DNA from: an archaeon UBA583
GTDB taxonomy: Archaea > Nanobdellota > Nanobdellia > Woesearchaeales > UBA583
DNA: 64,000 nucleotides
Reading direction: 5' to 3'
NCBI GenBank assembly: GCA_002506365.1
Contig: DAXK01000032.1
Location: 17,269 to 81,268, forward strand
Shown here piece by piece: positions 7,190 to 32,337 of the stretch. Below the pieces are notes generated by a model, which was not told where the DNA came from, did not search any database, and worked only from the letters and a program-made list of their open reading frames with translations. Both the position numbers and the translations under genes were made by a program. How positions within the stretch are numbered: position 1 is the first letter of the stretch; the number at the start of each line of letters is the position of its first letter.

Positions 7190-7888
7190 TTAACACCCCT
7201 TTGAAACAATAGTTACTAATGTTCCCCCAACAGAACCACCAGTTGAACCTGTAGTCCCAAATCCTGAACTAGTAGTATTCCCAGTTGTAGTTGTTGAAGA
7301 ACTTCCTCCAGCACACCCAGCAGCAGAACCTGAACCTCCTTTTGAAGCAAAAGCAGCATTTAAAGCAAAAGCCCAAATACTAGCAGAAGTAGGTTCAGAA
7401 AAATTTGACCACTCTCTCCATTCATTTGATTTTACTCTTTCATTATTTCCAACATAACTAGCCATTCTAGCATCTAATAATCCAGACTTAAAAGTTCCAA
7501 TATCACAAGAATAATTTCCATTATCTAATAAATTACAATTATTTGCCTCAATATTTTTATAATTAATTCCTGAAGGGAATGTATTTAATAATTCACTAGC
7601 TAAAGATTTATACTTATCAACTTCAGTTGTTAAAGTAGCATAATGATTATCAAAATCTTGATCAAAATCTTTAATAAAACCACCCTCATAAGCATCCTTT
7701 ATATCATTAATTTGATATTCAAAAGGATTTCCAGTAGCTTTTGTTTTTTCCTTTAAAACTTGTGTTTGAGCAGCAATATTACTATATTGTAAAAATAAAT
7801 CTCCAGCATTCTTTGGAGCAGTTGAAGCGCAACCTCCTAATAAAGATCCTGCTAATACAATTGTTGCAATTTTTTTATCTAAACTCAT
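7190..7888 (-). CDS. Putative lipoprotein with Gly/Ser/Thr-rich C-terminal tail
   Basis: Lipobox-like LAGSLLGGC near the N-terminus. C-terminus GGSGSAAGCAGGSSSTTTTGNTTSSGFGTTGSTGGSVGG. ATGA overlap with the upstream gene (7885-7888). Confidence 0.7.
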   Translation of the reverse strand: MSLDKKIATIVLAGSLLGGCASTAPKNAGDLFLQYSNIAAQTQVLKEKTKATGNPFEYQINDIKDAYEGGFIKDFDQDFDNHYATLTTEVDKYKSLASELLNTFPSGINYKNIEANNCNLLDNGNYSCDIGTFKSGLLDARMASYVGNNERVKSNEWREWSNFSEPTSASIWAFALNAAFASKGGSGSAAGCAGGSSSTTTTGNTTSSGFGTTGSTGGSVGGTLVTIVSKGC

Positions 7889-9195
7889 TTTTTATTTCCT
7901 CCTAAAGCAGTATAACCAGAATCAATTTCAGAATTAATTCCTCCATAAATACATTTAATAGTTTCCCCTGCATTAAAATTTGAAAATGTTTTCTTATCAT
8001 TAACTCCAGCAATACAAGTTTCACCAACATTAGTTAATTTGTCATCTAAATCTCCTTTCATCATTCTTCCAGTATAAGCAGTCATATTTTGTAAAATCCA
8101 ATCATCACCCGGTAAAATAAAATTTACAAAAGTTCCATCTCTTAAAGTTGTAGCATAAGCAGACTCTGAACTAACATTCGCCACATTATTCATATGATAA
8201 TTAGCAATATCAGATCCTGTTCTATCATGAACAGCTGATAATGAAATTCCATTTGCAAAATCTTCTAAACTAATACAATTATTTTCACCCTCCTTACAAT
8301 TTAATTTAACATTTGAATCAAAATAATTACTTCCAGAAACTAAAGCTTCTAAATTTCCTTTTGCTCCTGTTACTTTTTGTAAATAAGCAGCATCAGTTAC
8401 AGCCACAATATTTTCTTCAGGTAAAACTGAACTTGCTCTTTGATAAATTGAAGCAGCCATTCCCTCAATATTTGTAGGAAATCTTGACTTTTTATTAAAA
8501 GCATAATTTTTACCATTAAAACCTTTTCCTGATGAAACATTATAATTTGCTGAAGATTCATCAGTCTTTGAATATAATGAAGGATAAATTGAAAAATCAT
8601 CTCCTGAACCAGGTGTTAAAATATAACTTTTAGCTAATTCTAATTTTTCTTCTGAATCTTCAGAGATTGCTGATTGAACTACCTTACCAACATTAATATC
8701 TCCTAATCTATCACTAAAATCATACCAAACTTTACTTCTCTTCCCATTTCTAAATTGTTTATTTAATTTAGATTCTGTTCTTGGATCACAAAAAGCTAAT
8801 TTATTATCAGCAGCATTTACACAAAATTCACCAGTTTTTTCATCTGTTCCATATTTATAAGTTCTAATCATATATTGACCATCTGAGAATTTATCCCCTT
8901 CAATATCTTCTAAAACTCTATCACCATAAGTTGACTTATGATTATTTGCAACACATTCTTCAACATTTTTACCATTTCCTAAATTAGAAATATCATATTT
9001 AGTTCCTTTTTCTAACCATCTATCAGAAATTTTATTATATTTAGATTTACATTCAACAGATAAATTTGTATTCCCATCAGTTCCAAAGCTTTGAAACCCA
9101 TTTGCAGCATATACAGGACTATTAGCCCCTAAACTTAAAGCAGCTGTAACTCCAGCAGCTAAAATATTTGTTTTTAATGATTTTTTGTAGTTCAT
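7885..9195 (-). CDS. Secreted protein of unknown function
   Basis: 436-aa ORF with signal peptide ILAAGVTAALSLGANSPVYA. TATA-like TTTATAAA lies 26-35 nt upstream of the ATG. Confidence 0.7.
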   Translation of the reverse strand: MNYKKSLKTNILAAGVTAALSLGANSPVYAANGFQSFGTDGNTNLSVECKSKYNKISDRWLEKGTKYDISNLGNGKNVEECVANNHKSTYGDRVLEDIEGDKFSDGQYMIRTYKYGTDEKTGEFCVNAADNKLAFCDPRTESKLNKQFRNGKRSKVWYDFSDRLGDINVGKVVQSAISEDSEEKLELAKSYILTPGSGDDFSIYPSLYSKTDESSANYNVSSGKGFNGKNYAFNKKSRFPTNIEGMAASIYQRASSVLPEENIVAVTDAAYLQKVTGAKGNLEALVSGSNYFDSNVKLNCKEGENNCISLEDFANGISLSAVHDRTGSDIANYHMNNVANVSSESAYATTLRDGTFVNFILPGDDWILQNMTAYTGRMMKGDLDDKLTNVGETCIAGVNDKKTFSNFNAGETIKCIYGGINSEIDSGYTALGGNKK

Positions 9196-9220: not shown

Positions 9221-9253
9221 ATTTATAAAGGTTTTGTATGTTGTAACTTAAAG
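9221..9253 (-). promoter_or_regulatory. TATA-like box (9221-9230) plus upstream CTTTAAGTTACAAC motif (9240-9253)
   Basis: The same two-part architecture occurs upstream of four other genes (10353-10386, 11045-11079, 24771-24793, 35711-35738). Confidence 0.35.
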
Positions 9254-9342: not shown

Positions 9343-10332
9343 TTATTGAAAAATATCATAAATTTGACGAGATTTATTTGATAAATTTTTATAATTATTT
9401 AAAGAAATTAAACTTAAGTTTTTCATATCTAATAATAAATTATCCATAGACTCATTCCAATTATGAGTAAAATTACATTCAGTTAATTTCCCATATTTAC
9501 TTTCAAATCCAGCATTTAACACTGATTCTAATCCATTTTGAGCTAAAGGACCACCCAAAATACCATTTTCAATACTATGAGGATTTTCTACACAAATATT
9601 ATAAGTTTTCAAAACTGGTCTTACAACATTTACAGATTTTAAAACTTCCACAGATTCCAAAGGTCCTTTAAATTCTACAATTTTTTCAGATTTAATAATC
9701 TCATTATTTGAAATTAAATTTGTCTTTAAAGTTAAATCTACACTAGATTCAAAAAATAATTTACTTGAACTATCTAAATAAGGGAAAAAAGAGTCAGATT
9801 TATCTAAATTAGAATCTGAATTAAAATTATTTGAATAATTTTGAACAAAATCAGTTATTAAGTCCCCAGATAGATCTGGAAATAAATTATTAAATAAAGT
9901 TAAATTAATTGGCTTTTTACTCAAAATATAAGAAGAATCAATTTCATTTAAAGTATTTACATCACTAGATTCAACAGATTCGCCCAATCCATCTATATTA
10001 TCGCCAACTAATCCAAAACTACCATTATCAAAAAATAAATTCCTTAAACTCAAACTAAAATCAAAATTAGAATCCAAAATTGAAGTTAAATTAAAATCAG
10101 TATTAAAATTAGTTTTAAAATCATAATCTAAAACTTGTTTATACACACTAGAAACATTTGAATTAAAATCTAAATTATCATCATAATTCACAAATCCATA
10201 ATAACCAGATAACCCAATAGGAATAGTTAAAACCATATTTCTTAACAAATTACTTTTTTTCTTTTTAAAAATATCCCTTCCACCATTTTTATTAAATGGA
10301 TCACTAAATGAAGAAGAATTTACAAATACCAT
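9343..10332 (-). CDS. N-terminally anchored extracytoplasmic protein, paralog of 10454..11023 through a shared C-terminal domain
   Basis: TM segment LLRNMVLTIPIGLSGYYGF. C-terminal GLESVLNAGFESKYGKLTECNFTHNWNESMDNLLLDMKN aligns with the neighbour's YLEILNKGMENSYGANTGCEFTNNWYSNAVALLNDMKN. Confidence 0.65.
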   Translation of the reverse strand: MVFVNSSSFSDPFNKNGGRDIFKKKKSNLLRNMVLTIPIGLSGYYGFVNYDDNLDFNSNVSSVYKQVLDYDFKTNFNTDFNLTSILDSNFDFSLSLRNLFFDNGSFGLVGDNIDGLGESVESSDVNTLNEIDSSYILSKKPINLTLFNNLFPDLSGDLITDFVQNYSNNFNSDSNLDKSDSFFPYLDSSSKLFFESSVDLTLKTNLISNNEIIKSEKIVEFKGPLESVEVLKSVNVVRPVLKTYNICVENPHSIENGILGGPLAQNGLESVLNAGFESKYGKLTECNFTHNWNESMDNLLLDMKNLSLISLNNYKNLSNKSRQIYDIFQ

Positions 10333-10453: not shown

Positions 10454-11023
10454 TTAATTTAATTCATTATTTAATGCATTAGTTGTATTTAATAAAGTTT
10501 GATATGAACCTGATTCAACTGTCTCATTGTTTTTCATATCATTTAATAAAGCAACTGCATTACTATACCAATTATTTGTAAATTCACAACCAGTATTAGC
10601 ACCATAAGAATTTTCCATACCTTTATTTAAAATTTCCAAATAATCTTTAGAATTATCTAACCCTAAAACATTTTGACCTTTACATATCTCATAACCTGAA
10701 AAATCTGGTGAAATTTCCTCCTTAACTGGTAGCATACTCTCTAATCCAGTTTTAACTAAAGGAACACTAGCTTGAGATTCATCATGAGAAGTTAAATAAG
10801 GTTTAGTTAAACTTTCATTTGGTTTTGGTAAATGATTTTGAGGGTTTAAAGCATAAGCAGTTCCAGAAATTACATCAGAAATATTATCAGTATTATTATA
10901 AACTAAAGTTCCTAATGCTAAAATTCCAGCAATTCCTGCCCCAATAAAGCTATTTCTACCTAAATTTGATTTTTTATAATTTTTAACACTACTTAATCCA
11001 GCGTTATATGCATCGTAATTCAT
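10454..11023 (-). CDS. N-terminally anchored extracytoplasmic protein, paralog of 9343..10332
   Basis: TM segment SFIGAGIAGILALGTLVY. Conserved C-terminal Cys-containing domain shared with the neighbouring gene. Confidence 0.65.
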   Translation of the reverse strand: MNYDAYNAGLSSVKNYKKSNLGRNSFIGAGIAGILALGTLVYNNTDNISDVISGTAYALNPQNHLPKPNESLTKPYLTSHDESQASVPLVKTGLESMLPVKEEISPDFSGYEICKGQNVLGLDNSKDYLEILNKGMENSYGANTGCEFTNNWYSNAVALLNDMKNNETVESGSYQTLLNTTNALNNELN

Positions 11024-11044: not shown

Positions 11045-11079
11045 ATTTATAAATGTATCTTTATTGTTGTAACTTTAAG
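11045..11079 (-). promoter_or_regulatory. TATA-like box (ATTTATAAAT) plus CTTAAAGTTACAAC upstream motif
   Basis: TATA 22-31 nt upstream of the ATG at 11023. Motif shared with 9240-9253. Confidence 0.35.
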
Positions 11080-11102: not shown

Positions 11103-12281
11103 TTAAGGTTGTCCTAAAACTTGATTTATGTGAGCTTTCACAAAATTTGAAGCCTCATCAACACTATTAATTTGTTGATTATCAAAAAACTTAAACATAT
11201 TAGAAATAATTAAAATATGTTTATCAACACTTGCATCATCACAAGGTAAAGTTAAAAAATCCCTAATTACAACATCATTAAACAATTTTATTTTATTTTT
11301 AAAATTTCCATCAAAATGTAACTCTGACTCAACAAATCTTTCAAAAAATTCTAAATACTTTTGTTTAATAGTTGGATTACCAATATTTACAGCTAATTTA
11401 GAAATATCTCCAACCATTTCCTTTATTTCAACATCAGCTAAATGATTTGAAATAACTGGTTCAATCTTAATATCCCCACCAGTTTTATTAATATATGATT
11501 CAATATCATTTTTAGTTTTAAAATTAGCTGTTGGTAATTGCATAATTAAAGCTTTAATTTTTTCACTATATTCATCAAATTGTATTTCATCAGTCAAATT
11601 TTTCAAATATTCCTCACACATATACTTATTAAAAAAAACAACTTCATTAACCTTAATTAATTGAGAATTAAATTCCTTATTTGCTTCTAACATACCTGAT
11701 AAAAAAGATAATAAACCATTTTCATAAACTTGAAATACTTTAATATTCTTTGATTTATCAACTTTTTCGATAGTTTTTACAACTGTTTCAATTCTTCTAT
11801 AAATTTCACCTAACTTAGAAGTTTCATTAATTAAAACATCATCAGATTTAATTGTTGCTCCAACTAACTTAAAAACTTCATCAATCTTTTGAGAATATTG
11901 TGACAAAGTTTGTAAAAAACTTCCGTGATTATCTCCACCATCTCCAAAATAAGTTTTCAACTGATCAGGATTAGTAACTGTTGAAATTTTATTTAACCAA
12001 TTAATTAATTCACTTGTAAAAGTATCAATTTGAGTAATTGTTTCAAATGTTTGTTGATTATTTGCAGCATAATAAATTTGAGTTTCATTCCCTTTTCTCA
12101 TCCCAAAAGATTTCTTAAACATTTGACCAAGTGGAGCATTCATAAATCCTGAAACTGAATTTAATCCATTAATTTCCTCAATAGATAACTGATTTAAACC
12201 CTTTAAATTTTGTTCAATTGACTTTAACTCATTATTTATTTTTTGAAATTCTGTAACTAACAATTTAATATTTTTCACCAT
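11103..12281 (-). CDS. Large predicted helical protein, unknown function (module 2 partner)
   Basis: 392-aa ORF starting 2 nt after the stop of the upstream membrane protein gene. Local similarity to the 451-aa protein (KEFNSQLIKVNEVVFF vs GEFNSQYSENEVAFMA). Confidence 0.7.
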   Translation of the reverse strand: MVKNIKLLVTEFQKINNELKSIEQNLKGLNQLSIEEINGLNSVSGFMNAPLGQMFKKSFGMRKGNETQIYYAANNQQTFETITQIDTFTSELINWLNKISTVTNPDQLKTYFGDGGDNHGSFLQTLSQYSQKIDEVFKLVGATIKSDDVLINETSKLGEIYRRIETVVKTIEKVDKSKNIKVFQVYENGLLSFLSGMLEANKEFNSQLIKVNEVVFFNKYMCEEYLKNLTDEIQFDEYSEKIKALIMQLPTANFKTKNDIESYINKTGGDIKIEPVISNHLADVEIKEMVGDISKLAVNIGNPTIKQKYLEFFERFVESELHFDGNFKNKIKLFNDVVIRDFLTLPCDDASVDKHILIISNMFKFFDNQQINSVDEASNFVKAHINQVLGQP

Positions 12282-12283
12282 TT

Positions 12284-13036
12284 TTATTTAACCTCCATAT
12301 TTTGTTTAATATTTTTTAAACTTGAATTAATATTTGCTACACTCTTTTGAATTGAATCAATATTATTTTTAGCAGCAACAACTTTAGGATCAAACTCCTT
12401 ATTCTCACTCATCTCATTTGTTTTCTTTTTTCTAAATTTAAGTAAACCAACAACAATTGCTCCAAGTATTAAATATCCAAAAGCACCATATAAAAATTCA
12501 TAAACTAAAATCCAAAACTCAGAAGAATCAAACTCAATCATCTTTTCAACATAAATTGCTAAAATTAAAAAAACAAAAGAAAGCATTGCTAATAAATTAA
12601 AAGTTCTCCACTTAGACTCTTTATCACCCATATTATAAACCCAATGAATTAAACTAGCTCCAATTAAAGCTAATAAGAAAAATCCAACAGACCCACCAAA
12701 TAAAACAATTGCTTTATCAATATCTCCATCCTTAGCAAACATATAAAACATTCCAGTAACACCAATCAAAGAAATCATCATTGCAACAGTCCCTGTTTCC
12801 TTTTGATGACTTGAACCAAAAACAGGTTTTAAAGCAATTTTTAAAATATTAAAAAAACCTAACAAATAAGCAATAAAAATTAAAGCAAAAACTACAAACT
12901 TATTATTTAATAAACCAAAAATACCATTTTCTCCAAAAATTGAAACAAACGGTTTAAATAAAATAAAAGTTTCAGCAAAAACACCTTGTAAAGCTAAAAA
13001 CATTGCTAAAAATACAAAAACTAATTTTTTAATCAT
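12284..13036 (-). CDS. Polytopic membrane protein with signal peptide and coiled-coil-like tail (module 2)
   Basis: ATG at 13036 preferred (the ORF track starts at a TTG at 13042). Paralog of 16819..17778: QKETGTVAMMISLIGVTGMFYMF..LFGGSVGFFLLAL vs QKEINVIALMLSIIGTTGIFFIF..LFGGSVGLLFVLF. Confidence 0.7.
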   Translation of the reverse strand: MIKKLVFVFLAMFLALQGVFAETFILFKPFVSIFGENGIFGLLNNKFVVFALIFIAYLLGFFNILKIALKPVFGSSHQKETGTVAMMISLIGVTGMFYMFAKDGDIDKAIVLFGGSVGFFLLALIGASLIHWVYNMGDKESKWRTFNLLAMLSFVFLILAIYVEKMIEFDSSEFWILVYEFLYGAFGYLILGAIVVGLLKFRKKKTNEMSENKEFDPKVVAAKNNIDSIQKSVANINSSLKNIKQNMEVK

Positions 13037-13057
13037 AATCAAAAACCAACAAAAATA

Positions 13058-13080
13058 CTTTATATAAGTTTCGTTTCAAA
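13058..13080 (-). promoter_or_regulatory. Putative promoter of module 2 (TATA-like CTTTATATAAG plus AAGTTTCGTTTCAA)
   Basis: Lies 21 nt from the ATG. 16/22 identical (13/14 in the distal part) to the element at 17799-17820, which has the same spacing. Confidence 0.45.
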
Positions 13081-13107
13081 AAATATAATGAATTAAGAAA
13101 AAAATAT

Positions 13108-13518
13108 TTATTCCCAAATATTATACCAAACACCAACATAATGGACAACAACATACAAAAAGAAAATATAAGCTAAAACAAAAACAATCAAACTAACTAA
13201 AATTGTATTAATAATTTTAGTTCTCTCCCTTTTAACCTTATCTATTGAACAAATTCCTTGCCGTCTAAAATAAAAAAATAAAAATATAGCTAAAAATAAT
13301 AATCCAACTCCTCTAAAAACCCAACGATAAGTTCCATAAAATAAATCACTTAAACTCGCAGCAAAACTAACTGAAGCTAAACCTAACATTACTAAAATTA
13401 ATGGAGATAAACAACACATACTCGCAAACAAAACTGGCAAACCAGTTAAATTAAGATATTTACGATAAACACTTTCTTGATTTGAATTATTATCTTCATT
13501 TAAAATTTCTTTTTCCAT
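13108..13518 (-). CDS. Small membrane protein with MerT/MerF-like CC motif in its first TM helix
   Basis: LPVLFASMCCLSPLILVMLGLASV resembles the TM1 vicinal-Cys motif of mercury transporters. 3-4 TM helices. Start taken at the internal ATG (MEKEIL..). Confidence 0.4.
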   Translation of the reverse strand: MEKEILNEDNNSNQESVYRKYLNLTGLPVLFASMCCLSPLILVMLGLASVSFAASLSDLFYGTYRWVFRGVGLLFLAIFLFFYFRRQGICSIDKVKRERTKIINTILVSLIVFVLAYIFFLYVVVHYVGVWYNIWE

Positions 13519-13586
13519 AAAATAAAATATTAAAATATACATATAAAATAATTCTTTAACACTTAAAAATTAATTAAAATTAAATA

Positions 13587-14057
13587 CTAATTTTTAATAG
13601 GATTCAAAACATCATGCATATCATTACTAAAATTCACTAAACAACGATTTAATATTAAATTCTCCCTTTTAGTCAATAATTTATGTTCATCCCAAGTTTG
13701 TAATAAACATAAAATCATATTACAATAATTAATTGAATCATGTAAAACAAAATTTTGATGATTTAAATTCATAATAATCTTAAAATTTGGACCTAAAACT
13801 AACTTAATCTTTGAAACTAAATTTCTTAAATGCTTTAACTCATCTAAATGATTTGGTCTTGTAGCATTCAAATGTCTCGGATTTGTTGGTAAAAAATGTT
13901 CTAAATCAACAATTAATTCCTTTAAATCCAAAAGTTTTTTAGAATTAATTTTTGATGAACAATTAACAGCATCAATAGAATTATCAACATCAATCTTTTC
14001 AACTAAATCCTTTGAAAAAAACTTTCTAATCAAAGATAAATCTATTAAACCTAACAT
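13587..14057 (-). CDS. Hypothetical protein
   Basis: 156-aa ORF co-directional with and downstream of the module 1 genes. No recognisable motif. Confidence 0.5.
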   Translation of the reverse strand: MLGLIDLSLIRKFFSKDLVEKIDVDNSIDAVNCSSKINSKKLLDLKELIVDLEHFLPTNPRHLNATRPNHLDELKHLRNLVSKIKLVLGPNFKIIMNLNHQNFVLHDSINYCNMILCLLQTWDEHKLLTKRENLILNRCLVNFSNDMHDVLNPIKN

Positions 14058-14123
14058 ATAAATAAATTAACAAATTGACTTTATAATAAAATGTATATTT
14101 ATTTAGTGATTACTAATAAATAC

Positions 14124-15458
14124 CTATTTTAAATATTTTCCCAAGATATTATTTAAATTAACAATAAGTTGTTTTATATCTTTTAAATCCGAATTACTCT
14201 GAATATTTTTCTTCTTCCAAATTTTCACAATATCAACACCTATAGAACAATCAACCATCAAATCATCACACTCACTAACTAAATCAGTAGTCCTTTTTGA
14301 ATTATCAACCATAACAAAAGAATTGTAAAAACTATGTAAATAATTTTCAAGATTCTCAAAATTTAAAATTAAATTATCCCAATCACAAAACCTAATTTCA
14401 GAACTACCTATTTTATTTAATCCACTCAAAGAATCAACAATTATTTTTTTAATACCTTGAGGTGAATTTAATTGTTTATATCCTGATTTTTTAGAATTAA
14501 ACTCATCATTATTATTATTTGAATTTTTACCAGAATTTTGGTCAGCTGATTTTGATTTAGATTCTGAATAAAAAGAATTAACCATACTCCTAATTTCTAC
14601 ATCCTTTAATCTATCTCCCTCAACCAACTTCACAACCTTTGACAAATTATCTAAAAAATAATTTTGGCCACTTTGAAAATCAGCAAAACTTAAAGTTGAA
14701 ATCAAAGTTTTATAAAAATAAACAAACCTACTAAAATTCTCCCCAATAGTCATAATTTTAATTTTACTAAACTTAGACTTAATTAAATACTGGTTTTTTA
14801 AATCTGCTAAAAAATAAACAACCTTTGAATCAAATAATTTAAAATCCTTTGTCGAAGTAAAATGAGAAATCACCTGAAACAAATTATTAAAATGATTCTC
14901 AAACTCAACATCTGAAACTTGATCATTCTCAAAAGCACCCATATTCTCATTAATCTGTTTCTCATAATCAGTAAAATCTCGTCCCGCAACCTTAACATAT
15001 TTATCAACTAAATAAGTTTTCAAAATTTTATTCCACAAACCAATTGTATTCTCATCATAAGGACTTGGTAAACTAACTTTATTATTCTCAGGCAAATTAC
15101 CAACAATTCTTTCCAATAACTCCTGAGAAATTCCAAAATGTTTTTCAAAATCACTTTTTTTATGAAACATCAAAGTATCTAAAAAATTATTATCATTAAT
15201 TAACACATACTCTTTTTCTGAAACCTTATACACCTTAATAACAAAATCTCTAAAAGACTTATCACTAAACTCAACTGACTCAACATCTAAAAATAACATA
15301 AAATTTTGAGCTTCACTAGAAGCATCCATTATAAAATGAAAATCATTATAAGAAACATAAAACTTTGAACCTATTTTTAAATCCAAAATTTTATTAGGGC
15401 TCTTTGGACTAATTCCCAAACTATCCTGAATATTCCTTATATCATCAACCATTTTCAA
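14124..15458 (-). CDS. Large predicted helical protein, unknown function (module 1, third gene)
   Basis: 444-aa ORF starting 2 nt after the stop of the upstream gene. Has a low-complexity N/S/K linker. Confidence 0.7.
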   Translation of the reverse strand: MKMVDDIRNIQDSLGISPKSPNKILDLKIGSKFYVSYNDFHFIMDASSEAQNFMLFLDVESVEFSDKSFRDFVIKVYKVSEKEYVLINDNNFLDTLMFHKKSDFEKHFGISQELLERIVGNLPENNKVSLPSPYDENTIGLWNKILKTYLVDKYVKVAGRDFTDYEKQINENMGAFENDQVSDVEFENHFNNLFQVISHFTSTKDFKLFDSKVVYFLADLKNQYLIKSKFSKIKIMTIGENFSRFVYFYKTLISTLSFADFQSGQNYFLDNLSKVVKLVEGDRLKDVEIRSMVNSFYSESKSKSADQNSGKNSNNNNDEFNSKKSGYKQLNSPQGIKKIIVDSLSGLNKIGSSEIRFCDWDNLILNFENLENYLHSFYNSFVMVDNSKRTTDLVSECDDLMVDCSIGVDIVKIWKKKNIQSNSDLKDIKQLIVNLNNILGKYLK

Positions 15459-15460
15459 AA

Positions 15461-16816
15461 TTATCTAGGCAACTTAAAACCATTAACAATATTCGCAGTA
15501 GTTAATAAAATATCTTTTAATGACTCTTCAGCATATGTTGAATTAAACTCTCTTTTCAACTTAACTTCTAAAGATTTCAAATTAGCAACTACTGCCTTAA
15601 CTTCATCTAAAGTAATGTTAATTCCTCCATAAACTAAAATTTCATAAATAAACCTTCCAACATTTTCACTATTATCTAAACCATTAATTGTTAAAAAATA
15701 ATTTACTGGAGTTAATAATTTTTTAAGTTCAAGTTGATACATTGAATCAGATTTAATACTATTTCCTAAAGAAATAAATCCAATCATAACATCAACATTT
15801 GTTCTAATACCATTAACAAATTTATCTTTATCTACACCATCCATATCAACTCCAGAATTTGATTCTTCCTTTGGTTTTGGTTTCTCATAAATCTTTTTAA
15901 CCTTCTCAACTTTTGACTTTTTAGACTTTAATAAATGTAATAAAGTTTCTTCAACAAATGAATCAATTTTTTCTTTCTTTTCATCATCTAAAACATTATA
16001 TGTTTTACATTCACCCAATTTAGTAATATCTAAACCTACATCATCTAATAAATTCTTTAAAGAATTATATCTATTATAACCATAATCTCCCGCGAAAAAT
16101 CTCTCTGCAAAAATATTAATTGACTTATCTAATTTCCCCATCTCCGCCATAAAAGCAACTTCATTCTCTGAATACTGTGAATTAAATTCTCCAGAATATT
16201 GATATAAATTTGATAAAATTTTAGCTAAAGAATAAAATAAACTTCCTTTATCAATACTCTCGGATAAATGTTTCTCAAAATCAGAATAAAAAGCAACAAA
16301 AAACTTAGCCGAATGTTCAACAGTTAACTCAACAGCATTAACAACCCCACTTAACTTATCAACCAAAGATGGAACATAATTAAATAATTTTCTAACAGCA
16401 TCATACTTATTTTTATTATAATGACTAATTCTATCAATTAATAATTTATTTGTTGAAACATGTTCAAAAGTAGTTTGACCTAAAAATTCTCTAATTGAAT
16501 CCTCTTCATCCTTAACTGACTTTTTCAAATCTTCACAAAACCCTAAAAATTCATTAGCATCATTCTCCAAAGCATTAAAAATTTCTTTATATAAATTATC
16601 ATCATTTAACTTTGAATCTTTTGTAAATACATCCAAAGCCTCAACTTCATTTTCCCCAAAAGATTTCACATCTGAAATAATATTTAAAAACCTATTAACT
16701 TCAACTAAAATTTTATCATTTTCCTCTCTATAAATTTGAAACTTTTGTGCAAATGTTGATTTTAAATTACTATTAACTTTAACCTTATCCTCAAAACTTT
16801 TTCCTCCTACTGCCAT
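15461..16816 (-). CDS. Large predicted helical protein, unknown function (module 1 partner, related to 11103..12281)
   Basis: 451-aa ORF starting 2 nt after the stop of the membrane protein gene. Shares the EFNSQ..NEV.F block with the 392-aa protein. Confidence 0.7.
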   Translation of the reverse strand: MAVGGKSFEDKVKVNSNLKSTFAQKFQIYREENDKILVEVNRFLNIISDVKSFGENEVEALDVFTKDSKLNDDNLYKEIFNALENDANEFLGFCEDLKKSVKDEEDSIREFLGQTTFEHVSTNKLLIDRISHYNKNKYDAVRKLFNYVPSLVDKLSGVVNAVELTVEHSAKFFVAFYSDFEKHLSESIDKGSLFYSLAKILSNLYQYSGEFNSQYSENEVAFMAEMGKLDKSINIFAERFFAGDYGYNRYNSLKNLLDDVGLDITKLGECKTYNVLDDEKKEKIDSFVEETLLHLLKSKKSKVEKVKKIYEKPKPKEESNSGVDMDGVDKDKFVNGIRTNVDVMIGFISLGNSIKSDSMYQLELKKLLTPVNYFLTINGLDNSENVGRFIYEILVYGGINITLDEVKAVVANLKSLEVKLKREFNSTYAEESLKDILLTTANIVNGFKLPR

Positions 16817-16818
16817 TT

Positions 16819-17778
16819 TTATAATCCTCCTCCACGCTTTAACTCATTTGAAATCTCTGTTAAAATATCGTGTTGCTTATTAACACTATCCTTAACATTT
16901 TTTAATCCAGGTCCCATTCTTGATAAATGTCCTTGCATTTTTTTAACATTCTTTTTAATTTCAGGAGATAATTCACCCTCAGTTTTTTTCTTTCCCGTTT
17001 TCTTTTTCCCACCAGAAAACAAATTTCCTAAAAACCCATTATCACTTGAACTATCAGACTTAACTTGCTCAACCTCATCAGGTTTTTTCTTTAAAGCCAT
17101 TAATCCAAAAATCACTCCAAAAAAAATTAACCAAGTTAAAATTGCTGAACCATTATTATAAATAACTAAAAAAATATTATAATCACTCAAACTAGTACAA
17201 CTAACATTTTTAGCAGCCCCAGTAACTTTACAACCCAAAGATTTTAAAACTTGCCCAGCATAACCAATAATTAAAAATAAAGAACAAATCGCACCTAACG
17301 CAACAATAGAAATCCAACCTGCACCTTTACCTAAAGGCCCATCCGTATTTTCAAAACTTTTCGCAAAATCAATAAAAAATCTCATAATTAAAACACAAAT
17401 AAATAAAACAAACAATAAACCAACTGAACCACCAAACAAACTAATTAAACCTGACGCATCAGTTCTAAAAATAAAAAAAATCCCAGTAGTTCCAATGATA
17501 GATAACATTAAAGCAATTACATTAATTTCCTTTTGACCAAATTGACCACTTCCATCAACCTTACCAAAACTAAATCTTAAAAGTCCCTTAAATAAAGCAA
17601 ATGTCCCAACAATCATTGCAAAAAACATAAAACCTAAAACAACTTTCTCATTTAAAATTAAAGTTGATATAGTTGTTCCAAATTTAATAAAAGTGTCTTG
17701 GATAACACTAGCACCAAACCCAACTGGCAAAAAAGCAGTTAAAACTAATGCTAAAAGCGATAATTTATTCTTAAACAT
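16819..17778 (-). CDS. Polytopic membrane protein with signal peptide and Lys-rich coiled-coil-like tail (module 1)
   Basis: Signal-like LSLLALVLTAFLPVGFGA and about 5 TM helices. Paralog of 12284..13036. Confidence 0.7.
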   Translation of the reverse strand: MFKNKLSLLALVLTAFLPVGFGASVIQDTFIKFGTTISTLILNEKVVLGFMFFAMIVGTFALFKGLLRFSFGKVDGSGQFGQKEINVIALMLSIIGTTGIFFIFRTDASGLISLFGGSVGLLFVLFICVLIMRFFIDFAKSFENTDGPLGKGAGWISIVALGAICSLFLIIGYAGQVLKSLGCKVTGAAKNVSCTSLSDYNIFLVIYNNGSAILTWLIFFGVIFGLMALKKKPDEVEQVKSDSSSDNGFLGNLFSGGKKKTGKKKTEGELSPEIKKNVKKMQGHLSRMGPGLKNVKDSVNKQHDILTEISNELKRGGGL

Positions 17779-17798
17779 AGTTCAAATTCAAAAAAAAG

Positions 17799-17820
17799 CA
17801 TATTTAAAGTTTTGTTTCAA
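17799..17820 (-). promoter_or_regulatory. Putative promoter of module 1 (TATA-like CATATTTAAAG plus AAGTTTTGTTTCAA)
   Basis: Lies 20 nt from the ATG. Matches the module 2 element at 13058-13079. Confidence 0.45.
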
Positions 17821-17949: not shown

Positions 17950-20900
17950 TTAACTCTCACCACCCGAAAACTCATTAGTATAAAGCATATACTGTTTTCC
18001 AGCCAACTCAACAAAAATACTCCCTAAATCATTAAATCCTGAAATATCACTTCCTAAATCATATTCCTTTTTAGTTATTGGATCAAAAAATATTACCTTA
18101 TGAACATTATTAACATTATCTAAATAAGTTGTATAAATTCCATTTGATAAACTATAAAAAGTTCTCGAAATAGCATTATAAGTAGGATAAGTTAAAGTTG
18201 AAACTAAACTATAATTCATAATAGAATTATTGAAATAATGTAATTCATAAAAATAATCCCAATCCATATTTCTATACTCATTAACTAAATACAACTCCCC
18301 ATTTGTAACAATTGCTTTTAAATCTGATATTTTTGAATTAATTGGTGAAATTCCATAAATATTTGTCCCATCAAAATAACCAATATTATCTCCATCCTCC
18401 TCGCCCGAATAAATAAAAAATAATTTATTATCATAAACAAATAAATATTTAAATTGACCTGAAACATCAACTCCTCCAAAATCATTATTTAAAATACTTA
18501 TACTTGAACCATCATAAGACACTAAAGTATAATCTGAAAATCCAGAAACTCTTGCCACAAAATACATCTTCCCATTATACTCTGTAAATTTTTGTGGATA
18601 TGAATCTGCTGAACCAGTCGATAAATCTGAAACTCTTATAGCAGACGCACCATCATATTTATATAATTCTTTACCAAAAGAACTTGAAGATTCTCCTGAA
18701 AAATACATATTCCCTTCAAAATTAAATAAATTACTTGGTGAACCACTACTAGAACCCGATTTTAAATCAACCGCAAGATTTGTAACATTTCCATCAAGCC
18801 TAAATAATTCAGTCCCATAACCTGAAACTCCATCAGTAAAATATAATTTTCCATCATAAAAATGTAAAACATCAGGTGAACTATAACTAATAACACTTTT
18901 ATCTCCAATTTTATTATAATTGTTTGAATTATCTATTTCATAAATCTCTTCTGCTGCAGTTAAATATAATTTTCCATTTTCAATTACAAAATTATCAGGA
19001 TCTGAACCATACTCCTCACCATTATAATCAACTAACAAACTAACATTATTAGAAACTAAATCATAAACATAAACTTCACGCCCATATTGACTATGATCAC
19101 CAGTAAAAACAAAATCATTAACATCAACTCCAGAATAAAATGAACTAAAAGTCATATCATCAAAACTCAATCCAATATTTCCAAGCTCAGAAGCATTATG
19201 TAAAACATTTAAATTATCAATATAATATAAATTCACAGTTGAATGTAATGAAGAAGTTGTAAAAAAAACCTTATCATCAAAAAAAGTTAAATCATCAGGA
19301 GTAGAACCACTCAAACCAGACTTCAAATCAAGATTACTCCAAATAGAACCATCATAAATATATAATTCATTTCCAATCCCATCATCATTTTCTCTACCAC
19401 TAAAATATAATTTATTATTAATAATTGCTGAATCTTTATAATAATCAAAATCTTTAATATCAATAACATCTAAACTTGAGTTTAATTTTCTTATAAAATC
19501 ATTATTAGTTCTAAAATATAACTCTCCAGCAATTTCCCCAATAAAAGCAGGTGCAGATTGCCCAGAACCTACAATAATATCCTTAACTATTGTTGAATAA
19601 GTTTCCCCATCACTCCTATAAATTTCAGTCCCAGTAGTAGGATGTCTATGCGTAAACAAAATTTCATTATTATATTTTGTAATATCGTAAATTCCATAAG
19701 TATGTGTTGCAAAAGTATAAGATTTTACAACATCAGTTCCATTAAAAGAATAAAATGAACTTTGTGAAGGAGAAAAACTTTGAGCTCCAAAATACATTTT
19801 TCCATTTAATTCAACAAAACCACTAGCATCACCCATCAAAGTTGCTTGAGAACTATCAGTTACTTCAACTAAATTAGTTCCATCAACTCTAAATAAATTA
19901 GCATTTGAATTTGTAGTAGGATAATCCATTAAAATATACTCTTCCCCCCCATAGGTGAAAATTTCATTAATTGAACCAGCTTCCCTTCCACCATCAATAG
20001 TCATCTCAGTTAAAACACCTGATTTATATTTATATAATTTATAAGGTCTTGGAAAATTATATTTTATATATAATGAACCATCATTTGATTTCCCTTCAAC
20101 AATTGGATTTGAATCTTTTGTTTGAAAATTTAAATTTTTTTCTAAATTAAAACTTGAACCATCAAAACTCATCAATTCATTACCTGAACTAGCAAGACCA
20201 CCTGGAAAATATAATTTACTATTAAACATTCCAGTTTTTAATTCTCTTAAGTAATATTCATTAGTTGTAATTGAATTATAATTATCTAATTGAATATTAC
20301 TTAAATCCATATTAATCGTACTAAAACTAGCTAAAGAATAACTTTGTAAAGCATCAATAGCAGTCATAAAAGTTTCCAAAACATCTACGTCCTCCTCAAA
20401 ATAAAATTCCATATAACAAGAATCCCCATTAGGACTAAAACCTCCAAAAGATACTAAAACTTCATCATTATTTTCAAAATATTTATTAAAAGGAAGTTTA
20501 ACAAAATTATTTAATTCCACATAAGGATATGAAAAATAATTTTCATATTCTTTAGCTTCATTCTCCGTATAACCTTCAAAAGTAGTAGGACTATAAAATG
20601 CTCCTTCAGTATAAGGAAAAGTCCCATACTCCCCCAAAGAATCAAAATCTGTAGATTGTGTAAATGTAATACTTACATCATTATCACCACAATCTGATTT
20701 TACATAAACACTTGATAAAGTAACATCATCATTAAATGAAAATTTCATTTTCCCAAAACCATTAGAACTTAAATTTAAATTTACTCTAACAGTGTTATGC
20801 CCTTCAAAAGTTTCTAAACTATAATCATATTTCATAATCGGAGGTGGTGGTGGAGGTGGAATTCCCTCACCATCCCAAACAGAAGATATAACATAAGTAT

Positions 20901-21414
20901 AATTAGCAACATAATTAGCTAAATTATCTAACGGATATAAATCCCCTGCTGAAATATTATTTGAACCTGAATTCAAACTAACAATTTCAGTATCAATAAA
21001 CTCATAAGTTTCAAAAATTCCAAAATCTGTAAAAACAACAACATTTGCTTTAGCTGAAGAAACATTTTTTAAACAATCAGCCAAATTAATTTTTGAAAGA
21101 CCTGAAAAACTTGCTGAAACATTATCACACTCAACACCATTAATTTCAATTTTATTAATAGTTGAATTTTGTCCAGCATTAAAATAAAAAACATCTCCAA
21201 CTAACTCCTGTGAACTAATTTTACCCAAACTACCACTAGCTCCCGTAAAATCTCCTTGAACTTCAGCATCCACAAACAACTGCGATGAAAAATTACCAAA
21301 CCAACCTTGAAAAAACACTACTGAACTAACAGCAACAACTAACATCAAACTCATTGCAACAACAGGACTTATCCCTTTTTTAAAATTATTATTCAAACAT
21401 ATCATACAATACAC
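17950..21414 (-). CDS. Archaeal type IV pilin-like (class III signal peptide) giant adhesin with poly-Pro linker and beta-propeller-type repeats
   Basis: KKGISPVVAMSLMLVVAVSSVVFFQGWF N-terminus. GIPPPPPPPI linker. Recurrent blade-like motifs GTEIYRSDG, GNELYIYDG, GREVYVYD, GTELFRLDG, GKELYKYDG. Confidence 0.85.
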   Translation of the reverse strand: MYCMICLNNNFKKGISPVVAMSLMLVVAVSSVVFFQGWFGNFSSQLFVDAEVQGDFTGASGSLGKISSQELVGDVFYFNAGQNSTINKIEINGVECDNVSASFSGLSKINLADCLKNVSSAKANVVVFTDFGIFETYEFIDTEIVSLNSGSNNISAGDLYPLDNLANYVANYTYVISSVWDGEGIPPPPPPPIMKYDYSLETFEGHNTVRVNLNLSSNGFGKMKFSFNDDVTLSSVYVKSDCGDNDVSITFTQSTDFDSLGEYGTFPYTEGAFYSPTTFEGYTENEAKEYENYFSYPYVELNNFVKLPFNKYFENNDEVLVSFGGFSPNGDSCYMEFYFEEDVDVLETFMTAIDALQSYSLASFSTINMDLSNIQLDNYNSITTNEYYLRELKTGMFNSKLYFPGGLASSGNELMSFDGSSFNLEKNLNFQTKDSNPIVEGKSNDGSLYIKYNFPRPYKLYKYKSGVLTEMTIDGGREAGSINEIFTYGGEEYILMDYPTTNSNANLFRVDGTNLVEVTDSSQATLMGDASGFVELNGKMYFGAQSFSPSQSSFYSFNGTDVVKSYTFATHTYGIYDITKYNNEILFTHRHPTTGTEIYRSDGETYSTIVKDIIVGSGQSAPAFIGEIAGELYFRTNNDFIRKLNSSLDVIDIKDFDYYKDSAIINNKLYFSGRENDDGIGNELYIYDGSIWSNLDLKSGLSGSTPDDLTFFDDKVFFTTSSLHSTVNLYYIDNLNVLHNASELGNIGLSFDDMTFSSFYSGVDVNDFVFTGDHSQYGREVYVYDLVSNNVSLLVDYNGEEYGSDPDNFVIENGKLYLTAAEEIYEIDNSNNYNKIGDKSVISYSSPDVLHFYDGKLYFTDGVSGYGTELFRLDGNVTNLAVDLKSGSSSGSPSNLFNFEGNMYFSGESSSSFGKELYKYDGASAIRVSDLSTGSADSYPQKFTEYNGKMYFVARVSGFSDYTLVSYDGSSISILNNDFGGVDVSGQFKYLFVYDNKLFFIYSGEEDGDNIGYFDGTNIYGISPINSKISDLKAIVTNGELYLVNEYRNMDWDYFYELHYFNNSIMNYSLVSTLTYPTYNAISRTFYSLSNGIYTTYLDNVNNVHKVIFFDPITKKEYDLGSDISGFNDLGSIFVELAGKQYMLYTNEFSGGES

Positions 21415-21561: not shown

Positions 21562-23730
21562 TTAATTTTCTTTAACAAATAACTTATCAATCATTTCAAC
21601 AAAACTAGTTGAACTAGTTAAATGAGCTAAATTCCCTTCAGATGTTTTCTCAACTGAACTACTAAGCTCACTTGAAAACCCAATAGACCCACATTCTAAA
21701 ACATCATGAGTTGAACTACTTAAAATTGAAGAAATAATTTTTCTATACTTATTTTCATTTAAATCATTTAAACAAATTGCTGTTAAATTATTCATATAAA
21801 AAAAAGAATCTCCCAAATCTCTACTTTTCCTATCAAAACCAGAATGAGTATCAATAAAATCCTTATGCTCAGAACTTAAAGAAGAAATTCCACTCCAATC
21901 ATTCTTTAAAACCATTAAACTTTTATCAATTATTTCCTCCCACTCAGACCTTAAAAATAAATCTGGAAAAAAATAATAAGCTGAAAAAACATCATAAGTA
22001 ATTTTTTCCAAACTTAAACTAGAATATAAATTTCCACCCCTAACAAAACTAGATTTAATTTTTAATTTCAATAAATTTTCAAAATCTAAAAATTTCTCAA
22101 CATCCATATCTGAACCTACAATTTTACCCAAAAATGCCATAAAAGAAGAAAAACTCAAAAATAAAACTTGGACATTTAAAGGAAACTTATCAAAACAATT
22201 ATCTCTAAAACCATTTAAATTTTTAACCTTAATTAATTCATTATCAAAATCCCAATTATACTTCACTATATTTAAAAAACTTGAATTTAACTTTCTATAA
22301 ATTAATAATAACTCATCATTTGAATAAACTTTATGTAACTCATCTCTATCAATTAAATAATATAAAAAATCTTCAATTCTTTTACCCAATAAAAAAACAA
22401 TATCACAATTACTCTCATTATCTCTCGACAATAAATTTTTCAAACCTCCAGTTTTAGAATCTATATTTTTTAAATAAAAATCAATCCTACTTTTAACTAA
22501 ACCAACTTCCCCCAAATTAATTAAAGCTCGAAGTCCAAAAATATCATCCCTAGCCCAAACATTTGAAAAATAAGGATAACCTGCAAAACTCCCAATACCA
22601 ACATACTTATTTTTTAATTCAACATTTAAAAATTTATAACAAGCAGCACAAGATAAATCATAAGCAACTTTCACTTTCTCAGATAACGGTTTTTCAAAAT
22701 TAATATTTGAAATATTTTCAAAAAAATTTAAAGTTTCATTATTTGAAATATCTTCAACCTCAATTTGATGTTTTTCCAATAATTCAATTTGAGATTTAAC
22801 CTCATCTAAACTAAACCCACAACCAAAAAATAATTTTTTATTATTTAAAATATTAACTTGCATCAACCTATAAACTGACCATTTCCAATCAGATTTTTGT
22901 AATCTTGTAAATTCATAATGTTTTGTAACAAATTTTTCAACTAAATCATAAGCAAAATTTTGAGCTTTAACCCCTAAAAATTGTTTGTATGAATACTTCC
23001 CATTATTTTTTGTAAACTCAACATACACAACACCATCTTCAGTAAAAGTTTTATAATCTCTCCCTGACTTATTAAAATCATTTTTCTTCTTCATATCTAA
23101 ATCAATATTTAAAGTTCCCTCAAAGTTTGAAATTTCATAAATTAAACCCCCTGTAGGACCTACAAAAAAAGAATCCTTTGTGCAACTTTTATCTTTTGAA
23201 AAAAAATTATTAGTAGAATCTAAATAATCACTTGGAGTTTCATCATCTGAATAAGTATAATTTAATTCCTCAGTAAATTTAGACTTAAAACTTCTCTCAA
23301 CTCTATTTCCAAAATAACTAACTTTATCAACATCAACTCCAACTGGAAAAATTGATTCAACAAATTTAAATATCTCAACAGTTGAACTCTTACAAACATT
23401 AAATCCTTGATACTTACAAGAATTAGAACTAACTCCCAAATTTAAAAAATCCCCTTTAGAATTAGTAAGTAAAAAATTTAAATTTAAAAGATCTTTTTCA
23501 GAAATCTGTTTAAATGTGTGATTTTTCTTACCCAAAACATAATCTATAATCATAATAATAAATATAAAATTATTAATTAAATATAAATGTCGAAATTCAA
23601 AAATGACAAGAACAAATACCACTAAAAAAAAATACAAAACCCCAATTCTTAATTTATCAGTCAAAACTAAAACTAAAAAACAAATTACACAAATAAATAA
23701 TATAAAGTTATAATTTAGTATAACAAACAC
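21562..23730 (-). CDS. Amylo-alpha-1,6-glucosidase (glycogen debranching enzyme C-terminal domain)-like protein
   Basis: AGYPYFSNVWARDDIFGLRAL resembles the GDE_C motif (G.P.F...W.RD). The first 59 codons are extremely hydrophobic and AT-driven. An alternative start at 23553 (MIIDYVLGKK) would leave room for divergent promoters. Confidence 0.55.
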   Translation of the reverse strand: MFVILNYNFILFICVICFLVLVLTDKLRIGVLYFFLVVFVLVIFEFRHLYLINNFIFIIMIIDYVLGKKNHTFKQISEKDLLNLNFLLTNSKGDFLNLGVSSNSCKYQGFNVCKSSTVEIFKFVESIFPVGVDVDKVSYFGNRVERSFKSKFTEELNYTYSDDETPSDYLDSTNNFFSKDKSCTKDSFFVGPTGGLIYEISNFEGTLNIDLDMKKKNDFNKSGRDYKTFTEDGVVYVEFTKNNGKYSYKQFLGVKAQNFAYDLVEKFVTKHYEFTRLQKSDWKWSVYRLMQVNILNNKKLFFGCGFSLDEVKSQIELLEKHQIEVEDISNNETLNFFENISNINFEKPLSEKVKVAYDLSCAACYKFLNVELKNKYVGIGSFAGYPYFSNVWARDDIFGLRALINLGEVGLVKSRIDFYLKNIDSKTGGLKNLLSRDNESNCDIVFLLGKRIEDFLYYLIDRDELHKVYSNDELLLIYRKLNSSFLNIVKYNWDFDNELIKVKNLNGFRDNCFDKFPLNVQVLFLSFSSFMAFLGKIVGSDMDVEKFLDFENLLKLKIKSSFVRGGNLYSSLSLEKITYDVFSAYYFFPDLFLRSEWEEIIDKSLMVLKNDWSGISSLSSEHKDFIDTHSGFDRKSRDLGDSFFYMNNLTAICLNDLNENKYRKIISSILSSSTHDVLECGSIGFSSELSSSVEKTSEGNLAHLTSSTSFVEMIDKLFVKEN

Positions 23731-30265: not shown

Positions 30266-30331
30266 AGAATTTATTATAATTTTATTTATTTAAATTAAAG
30301 GTTGAAAATTGAAACTAATTAAATAAAAATA

Positions 30332-32228: not shown

Positions 32229-32234
32229 AAAAAA
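32229..32234 (-). terminator. T6 tract immediately after the tRNA discriminator base
   Basis: AAAAAA on the plus strand abuts the tRNA 3' end. Oligo-T is the usual archaeal termination signal. Confidence 0.5.
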
Positions 32235-32309
32235 TAACGAAGAGTGGATTTGAACCACTGACCTCCGGGTTATGAGCCCGGCGAGCACTCCTAACTGCTC
32301 CACTTCGTT
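32235..32309 (-). tRNA. tRNA-Met (CAT), initiator type
   Basis: Hand-folded cloverleaf with 7-bp acceptor AACGAAG/CTTCGTT, D stem GAGC/GCTC, anticodon arm CCGGG-CTCATAA-CCCGG and T arm AGTGG-TTCAAAT-CCACT. A1:U72 and three G:C pairs next to the anticodon loop are initiator hallmarks. Confidence 0.85.
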
Positions 32310-32337
32310 AATATATATGTATTAATTTAATAAAACT

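Follow-up and report, generated by a model that had tools for sequence, protein, structure and literature searches.

A surface-layer (S-layer) protein is the most abundant protein of its cell envelope, where it forms a two-dimensional lattice and is usually heavily glycosylated. DPANN archaea are mostly uncultured and, to our knowledge, how they build their envelopes and contact their hosts is largely unknown. Here we analysed a 64,000-nucleotide stretch of DNA from the archaeon UBA583 (contig DAXK01000032.1; the whole stretch is called the window), in which two related membrane-protein genes (M1 and M2) are each followed directly by a gene for a predicted helical protein (H1 and H2) within a minus-strand cluster that ends in the gene of a 1406-amino-acid secreted protein with PKD/Ig repeats. 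As in the two-component slaA-slaB locus of the Sulfolobales, the gene of this large secreted protein is predicted to be co-transcribed with smaller secreted or lipid-anchored candidate anchors, and the candidate DPANN S-layer proteins NEQ300 and MJ1_0160 have a general build like that of the 1406-amino-acid protein (bioRxiv 10.1101/2023.10.27.564410). However, the protein of the window has few N-glycosylation sequons and no similarity to any solved S-layer protein, and known S-layer loci have no counterpart of the M, H, AAA and Y components described below. Another computationally predicted envelope system, the archaeal secretion system of arCOG01314, also combines an AAA+ ATPase, unnamed five-transmembrane (5-TM) proteins and Ig-domain S-layer-like proteins, and its defining members are an ATPase of the MoxR/GvpN type, a secreted protein with a vWA domain and a membrane protein resembling flavodoxin (PMC5898192). 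By contrast, the ATPase found in relatives of our cluster is of the PF00004 type, and no MoxR-type ATPase, vWA protein or flavodoxin-like membrane protein was detected in the window or related loci when compared with the published description. Finally, a single-domain classical AAA protein encoded between membrane-protein and long-helix genes in sister genomes recalls Vps4/CdvC-ESCRT-III, NSF-SNARE and Msp1, but the relatives' cluster lacks an MIT domain, Snf7/ESCRT-III and a SNARE signature, its AAA protein has unique N- and C-terminal domains, and the window is without the ATPase. No description of an M/H/AAA/Y cluster was found in the literature searched. The cluster appears to be an undescribed, lineage-restricted, membrane-associated gene system, and we regard the case as evenly balanced that it forms the core of a DPANN-restricted envelope cluster of about ten genes in which an M-H membrane base is tied to a surface protein.

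The window has a G+C content of ~25%, and its minus strand holds nearly all genes from 245 to 37782. Seven co-directional minus-strand open reading frames (ORFs) occupy 11103-17778 in the order M1, H1, X1, Y1, Z, M2 and H2, at the positions given by the original prediction, which had been made from the letters alone and had counted X1 and Y1 as extra tightly packed genes. M1 (16819-17778, 319 amino acids) and M2 (12284-13036, 250 amino acids) had been called clear paralogs, and this was borne out by BLASTP (E=3e-13) and by a Smith-Waterman score of 171 against 43±7 in shuffled sequences (z=18), a score that none of 500 shuffles reached. Shuffling in 20-amino-acid blocks, which preserves hydrophobic blocks, still left z=13, and M1 and M2 orthologs from different genomes matched each other (phmmer E 3e-4 to 3e-13, mostly <=1e-7). 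The family alignment shows the kept motifs FGxKE-x-N/T-V-I/V-A-L/M-M-x-S-x-I-G-x-x-G-x-F and FGGxxG. M1 and M2 are true paralogs. M2 orthologs were present in 8 related loci, and the window contains no further M or H copies. A Nanoarchaeales metagenome-assembled genome (MAG), DT_72, carries the full cluster (L002/L012) and a second, partial M1-type gene (P0016) on its scaffold_119 (L013), and extra M copies therefore occur in at least one genome.

Hydropathy and an AlphaFold2 model of M1 (21 sequences; mean predicted local distance difference test (pLDDT) score 70) agree on the signal peptide, about five TM segments and charged, coiled-coil-like tail that had been predicted, with M1 and M2 sharing a plan in which a signal-like helix opens the protein, five TM segments come next and a helix closes the C-terminal end. 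The helices of the M1 model span residues 3-20, 23-42, 44-71, 82-103, 108-142, 153-180, 202-230 and 272-314. In order along the model, the signal-like helix is followed by an amphipathic helix, the five TM segments, a short beta-containing loop that holds a Cys pair, a Lys/Ser-rich linker predicted to be disordered (232-271) and a terminal helix of 43 residues. The outside loop and the linker are shorter in M2. Since Lys/Arg-containing loops follow the positive-inside pattern and the Cys pair falls outside, M is probably oriented with its N-terminus out and its C-terminus in. Most M1 orthologs carry a lipobox-like LSGC, whose Cys is lost in the M1 of the window. Against the Protein Data Bank (PDB), profile searches with the M tail gave weak, non-significant matches to coiled-coil chains alone.

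The TM core of M holds invariant polar and small residues (K83-E84 at the start of TM2, G116-G117-x-x-G120 in TM3, K151 and W155), as might be expected if M formed an oligomeric channel or transporter that perhaps serves exchange with a host cell, with H as its cytoplasmic gate or regulator. The top Foldseek matches of the M1 model point the same way, being large-pore channels such as pannexin-1, yet fall short of significance (E=0.07, TM-score 0.13); no match to PDB or BFVD reached E<=0.001, and 0.13 was the best TM-score among the top-ranked PDB matches. No channel or transporter was significantly similar to M in structure or sequence, and five TM segments with small loops say little about a pore, so that we consider a channel quite unlikely. 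Assignment to the five-TM Yip1 proteins (PF04893) was also rejected. M2 reached 18.1 bits against a gathering score of 28.6 (E=0.0025), M1 gave no match, and one of the 21 family members matched at E<=0.5, below threshold; a signal peptide or lipobox and an N-out orientation further set M apart from Yip1. A VirB6/TrbL-type or Ced-type component of conjugation or type IV secretion systems was likewise rejected, M having no such Pfam match and the sole ATPase of the relatives' clusters being of the PF00004 rather than the VirB4/HerA type.

H1 (15461-16816, minus strand, 451 amino acids, predicted to be a cytoplasmic all-alpha protein) and H2 (11103-12281, minus strand, 392 amino acids, predicted to be cytoplasmic and of helical composition) each start 2 nucleotides after the M stop codon, as originally predicted, with TAA-AA-ATG at both junctions (GGAGGATTA-TAA-AA-ATG for M1/H1 and GGAGGTTAAA-TAA-AA-ATG for M2/H2). 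A GGAGG Shine-Dalgarno-like motif lies inside the 3' end of both M genes. Because this motif within the M end is followed by the stop codon, two bases and a start codon, the arrangement indicates translational coupling of M and H. The gap between the two genes is 1-2 nucleotides in the window and in most relatives, while a larger gap or an overlap of the called genes was seen in L001, L011 and L006. Orthologs of H1 directly follow M1 in 7 related loci, and orthologs of H2 follow M2 in 7 loci.

The original prediction also held that the soluble partners share a local block and that the two-gene module as a whole was duplicated. The block (FNSQ) was not significant by BLASTP (E=0.16), no homology between the H1 and H2 families was detected with 7-member profiles (hhalign E=0.32), and the Smith-Waterman score was reached by 81 of 500 shuffles (z~1). 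Homology of H1 and H2 was thus rejected at the sequence level, and with it the joint duplication of the pair, H1/H2 failing the similarity that M1/M2 show. H1 and H2 are positional analogues only. Because they are not detectably related, the proven duplication is that of the membrane gene alone, and this part of the duplicated-module claim stands while duplication of the helical partners is not demonstrable. The AlphaFold2 model of H1 is all-helical and of low confidence (pLDDT 49, with one homolog in the alignment), for which reason its Foldseek output is uninformative.

Conservation of the pair was judged in L001, L002, L004, L005, L006, L009/L010 and L011, that is, in six distinct contigs represented by seven fetched loci (L009 and L010 are near-identical). 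The M-H pairing is kept in every related contig long enough to judge, in agreement with the pairing being a conserved unit as predicted. Moreover, the order M1, H1, AAA ATPase, Y (~160 amino acids), M2, H2 and then secreted proteins is kept in the six distinct contigs, although the identity of M1 between these genomes is only 37-53%. The genes after H2 in relatives encode a secreted protein of ~175-308 amino acids, a secreted protein of ~470 amino acids, a ~230-amino-acid protein and a PKD protein of 1400-1500 amino acids. These last four genes are incomplete in some contigs, L002 having no PKD gene within the flank and L006, L009 and L010 ending before it. Where related contigs reach far enough, most do show secreted or lipoprotein genes downstream of the cluster and then a strongly conserved PKD-repeat surface protein of 1000-1500 amino acids. 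Compared with its relatives, the window has two extra genes, a MerT-like Z between Y1 and M2 and D329, a second copy of the D189 family.

Three more distant representatives contain M and H as one protein (P0040, 693 amino acids; P0055, 839 amino acids; P0065, 583 amino acids), in which the M domain is followed by a helical extension of 300-560 amino acids. The extension of P0065 matches the H1 family profile (hhalign E=1.4e-4 over 210 columns), and the motifs Y-R/K-x-x-N, Y-N-K/R and F-A/T-x-x-F-F-x-G occur in the same order in both. These gene fusions argue that M and H form one complex. In the contigs of P0040, P0055 and P0065, two smaller genes separate the fused gene from the gene of the same giant PKD protein, and none of the three contigs contains AAA, Y or a second M. 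The giant protein is much better conserved than M or H (650-760 bits across the distant fusion loci). The gene content of the fusion loci thus reduces the conserved unit, at its smallest, to [M+H], two smaller genes and the giant surface protein, and AAA, Y and the second module are an elaboration in the closer relatives of the window.

The genes might still not form one system, being fast-evolving DPANN 'dark matter' that is kept adjacent by genome compaction, with an M duplication of no mechanistic meaning. The lack of relationship between H1 and H2, the orphan X1, the MerT-like gene inserted within the cluster, and a promoter 14-mer (described below) that is half generic and not kept in relatives would all fit such an account. 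It is nonetheless improbable, given an order that persists at 37-53% M1 identity, a 1-2-nucleotide coupling in most genomes and the fusion of M and H in three independent representatives.

None of M1, H1, X1, Y1, M2 and H2 scored above threshold in Pfam, NCBIfam, PHROGs or PADLOC, as anticipated from their lack of recognisable motifs, and no characterised family emerged for M, H, X1 or Y1 from profile and structure searches. Searching Pfam with all members of the M, H1 and H2 alignments one by one yielded no recurrent weak match. PDB profile searches with M, H1 and H2 found nothing significant; the M tail drew weak matches to coiled-coil chains, and H1 and H2 to single designed helical proteins. 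The M family comprises 21 clusters among 5.8 billion proteins and 68 representatives among 1.84 billion in an exhaustive profile search, and the named sources of M homologs are Nanoarchaeales and Ca. Woesearchaeota MAGs, which supports the DPANN origin proposed for the sequence. A scan of GTDB representative genomes retrieved two genomes only, this pattern-based scan probably being insensitive.

An abundance of hypothetical proteins, together with weak PADLOC matches of the relatives' AAA protein to IetA and TRIP13, could also be taken as the mark of an integrated mobile element, a virus or a defence island. This is extremely improbable. There is no integrase, capsid, terminase or defence-family match for M, H, X1 or Y1, no structural match in BFVD, and the base composition of the cluster is uniform with that of its flanks. 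Its context is chromosomal and common to several genomes, with stable synteny and housekeeping genes alongside; a GDE_C-like enzyme, a 166-amino-acid gene and a DEAD-box helicase flank it in several genomes.

The slot between H1 and Y is filled by an AAA+ ATPase of 460-852 amino acids in the six distinct sister contigs and by X1 (14124-15458, minus strand, 444 amino acids; likely true start at the ATG at 15452) in the window. The ATPase matches PF00004 (E=7.6e-13) and contains Walker A GPPGTGKT, Walker B IFxDEGD, an S-M-Y-V-G pore loop, a sensor Asn and an Arg; the GTGK P-loop, the DE of Walker B and the sensor residues are invariant. Among proteins of solved structure, AFG2, VAT, Mpa, Msp1 and Vps4 are closest to it, and its ~270-amino-acid N-terminal and 250-430-amino-acid C-terminal domains are lineage-specific, without relatives in PDB. 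Given the family match, the conserved motifs, the pore loop and the nearest solved relatives, the protein is best classified as a threading-type AAA of the classical clade. By contrast, X1 is an orphan that matched only itself among the 5.8 billion proteins. It has no Walker or other NTPase motif, no Pfam match and no significant match to a hidden Markov model (HMM) of 8 syntenic AAA proteins (HMMER), and tblastn with the same 8 proteins detected no AAA-like DNA in the window. X1 was rejected both as a classical AAA+ ATPase, lacking Walker A/B and a PF00004 match, and as a third H paralog. Residues 19-85 of X1 bear a weak resemblance to the start of the N-domain in the ATPase that relatives encode (hhalign E=0.054 and 0.022; shuffle p~0.02), which is compatible with X1 being an ATPase remnant that has lost its motor, an origin that is unproven. 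With the ATPase of the six sister contigs absent and its slot held by an orphan, the window is the exception among the closer relatives. In the Woesearchaeota-type relative L011 (12202-16300), the AAA gene (460+85+134 amino acids) and H2 (65 amino acids) appear fragmented; the contig has a coverage of 4x, and the breaks could be an artefact of sequencing, or else the genes that differ in the window could truly be decaying in L011 as well.

The YVG pore loop of the relatives' single-ring classical AAA and its nearness to Vps4, CdvC, Msp1 and Cdc48/VAT raise the possibility of a membrane-remodelling or division-type machine in which H polymerises on the membrane through M tails and is recycled by the AAA+ protein, a functional counterpart of ESCRT-III/Vps4 (CdvB/CdvC) or of NSF at work on coiled coils anchored in membranes, with the position beside surface genes being incidental. 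Coiled-coil-like M tails and long-helix H proteins, whose non-significant Foldseek neighbours (for H1) include F-BAR domains, would suit such a machine. Nevertheless, none of 14 H1/H2 family members matched Snf7 or PspA at E<=1, none matched BAR at a lenient threshold, and the relatives' AAA scored 25 bits against a cut-off of 650 with the CdvC model, so that membership of the ESCRT-III/Vps4 (Cdv) group was rejected. The ATPase is also dispensable in this genome and in the fused-gene relatives, and synteny with the giant protein holds in most contigs extending far enough, distant ones included. We therefore judge a remodelling machine to be unlikely.

Both modules had been predicted to share an upstream element. 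The 14-mer TTGAAAC[A/G]AAACTT on the coding strand has exactly two perfect matches in the 64 kb, upstream of M1 and M2, and each lies directly 5' of a TATA-like octamer, namely TTGAAACAAAACTT then TAAATATG for M1 (17799-17820, minus strand, ending 20 nucleotides before the ATG) and TTGAAACGAAACTT then ATATAAAG for M2 (13058-13079, minus strand, ending 21 nucleotides before the ATG). In an archaeal promoter, the TATA box lies ~25-30 nucleotides upstream of the transcription start and is preceded by a purine-rich transcription factor B recognition element (BRE), and the two elements here show A/T-rich TATA-like octamers preceded by AAAC. When 2 mismatches were allowed, the 14-mer was not enriched in the window (13 matches versus 8.4 expected). 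Many unrelated genes of the window carry AAACTTTATAAA ~30 nucleotides upstream of the ATG, and the promoter consensus of the window is AAAC(C/T)TTTATA(A/T)A, ending ~20-25 nucleotides before the ATG. Because unrelated genes have the same arrangement at the same distance, the 3' half of the 14-mer (AAACTT with the TATA box) is best read as the generic BRE/TATA of this genome, and TTGAAAC alone as particular to the M1/M2 pair. The two promoters are unlike each other in related genomes, and only the nearest relative (L007/L008) has the 14-mer, its M1 promoter sequence being identical to that of the window. The shared element thus exists in the window, but it is mostly generic BRE/TATA and is not kept as a shared element in relatives, and for these reasons co-regulation of M1 and M2 by a dedicated factor is possible and unproven. 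The end of the M1 TATA box 20 nucleotides before the ATG suggests a leaderless or near-leaderless M1 mRNA, and the promoter spacing implies that first genes would mostly have leaderless mRNAs, whereas operon-internal genes carry GGAGG-type ribosome-binding sites. A different 11-mer, AAGTTACAACA, occurs exactly twice in the window on the minus strand (9239-9249 and 11065-11075), 42-54 nucleotides upstream of the ATGs of two downstream secreted-protein genes, D436 and D189, where it shortly precedes the BRE/TATA of each. Allowing one mismatch gave 10 matches versus 3.7 expected, and the 11-mer may be where a regulator of the cluster's surface-protein genes binds.

Among the remaining cluster genes, Y1 (13587-14057, minus strand, 156 amino acids) encodes a predicted soluble protein, has its own TATA-like box upstream, and is a conserved member with orthologs after the AAA gene in L002, L004, L005, L006 and L009/L010 (E 1e-33 to 1e-63). 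Z (13108-13542, minus strand, 144 amino acids) has three TM segments with a Cys-Cys pair in TM1 and resembles MerT below the cut-offs (Pfam 25.8 bits versus 32.9; NCBIfam 32.6 bits versus 150, E=7e-8); no relative examined has Z between Y and M2. Downstream of H2 on the same strand, the paralogs D189 (10454-11023) and D329 (9343-10332) encode membrane-anchored or secreted proteins with a common C-terminal Cys...Cys-F-T-x-N-W...DMKN block, and an iterated HMM search placed both in one family with the ~175-308-amino-acid gene after H2 in relatives, where it is single-copy. D436 (7885-9195, minus strand) has a signal peptide and D232 (7190-7888, minus strand) is a predicted lipoprotein with the lipobox LLGGC; their stop and start codons overlap, and both are conserved cluster members. 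Orthologs of D436 are full-length in L004, L005 and L011, with a partial match at the contig end of L006/L010, and those of D232 were found in L004 and L005 only. The terminal gene (2965-7185, minus strand) encodes the giant PKD/Ig-repeat protein of 1406 amino acids, which is secreted, matches Pfam PKD_4 and CarboxypepD_reg, and has a signal peptide and no C-terminal TM segment. No PDB sequence matched it, and its build and high conservation point indirectly to an S-layer-like role, which makes it a candidate for the major protein of the surface. The conserved neighbourhood of secreted proteins, a lipoprotein and this giant PKD protein strengthens the envelope link that had been proposed.

The original prediction placed the modules inside a 23-kb block of surface proteins. 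Secreted proteins do occur there, but so does a cytoplasmic GDE_C-like protein at 21562-23553. Its ORF was called from a GTG at 23730, the probable ATG start giving 663 amino acids; it scores >1000 bits to relatives without a Pfam match of its own and keeps synteny with the cluster. In L015 and L016 the orthologs bear the annotation GDE_C (amylo-alpha-1,6-glucosidase or glycogen-debranching type), and the one in L016 adjoins glycogen-synthase-like genes. Immediately upstream of M1, 17950-21414 encodes a 1154-amino-acid protein with an archaeal class III (pilin-like) signal, KKGISPVVA..., and ELWxxDGT repeats (TIGR04534, E=3.5e-29), and relatives have different large proteins at this place. Farther away, at 29273-31978, a DUF4420 (PD-(D/E)XK-type) protein adjoins a 548-amino-acid protein without Pfam matches. 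The two lie within the stretch of lowest G+C in the window (0.20), just before tRNA-Met (32234-32310), and could form a small defence or restriction island.

Taken together, these results are compatible with the following model of an M-H membrane base tied to a surface protein. M1 and M2 would be paralogous N-out/C-in five-TM proteins whose tail consists of a flexible linker and an amphipathic helix of ~40 residues. Each would be made stoichiometrically with an all-alpha cytoplasmic partner via translational coupling and would bind that partner, most probably through the tail, giving two related membrane-anchored M-H complexes. In the organisms of the sister contigs, an AAA+ unfoldase may use ATP to assemble, take apart or remodel the M-H complexes or a client protein. 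Here the ATPase gene may have been replaced by X1 or have degenerated into it, and the system would therefore run without the ATPase, like the distant fused single-gene versions, or borrow another one. Most likely, the M-H complex would serve as a cytoplasmic-membrane base that organises, anchors or helps to deploy a surface layer or adhesin. Three steps of the model are inferred, namely the contact of M with H through the tail, what the ATPase does and how the complex is tied to the surface protein. Extending the model to a new DPANN trans-membrane machine, an ATP-remodelled helical scaffold for the major surface layer or adhesin that possibly serves host attachment or communication and is present here as an ATPase-less variant, yields a proposal that we hold only tentatively and consider doubtful at present, and a host-contact apparatus is speculation.

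Several points weigh against the membrane-base model. The contact between M and H is deduced from coupling, synteny and fusions, while the H1 model is of low confidence (pLDDT 49), and the link to the surface protein comes from gene order only. The 1406-amino-acid protein has only 8 N-glycosylation sequons, fewer than is typical of S-layer glycoproteins in archaea. Direct anchoring by M is questionable given how small its extracellular parts are. The 'duplicated module' may have arisen by duplication of M alone, the two copies then taking on different partners, and the loss of the ATPase here could mean that the system is decaying in this genome.

With 68 representatives among 1.84 billion proteins the distribution is narrow and the function is inferential, so that the cluster represents a 'dark matter' module rather than a demonstrated new system. 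As a conserved, coupled and partly duplicated gene set, it nevertheless offers a well-defined candidate, amenable to study, for a machine of the envelope or host interface. Nature supplies two variants, the M-H fusions and the form lacking the ATPase, as built-in comparisons for dissecting its function. If the scaffold proposal is true, the cluster could contribute to the machinery that lets these ultra-small archaea attach to host cells or communicate with them.

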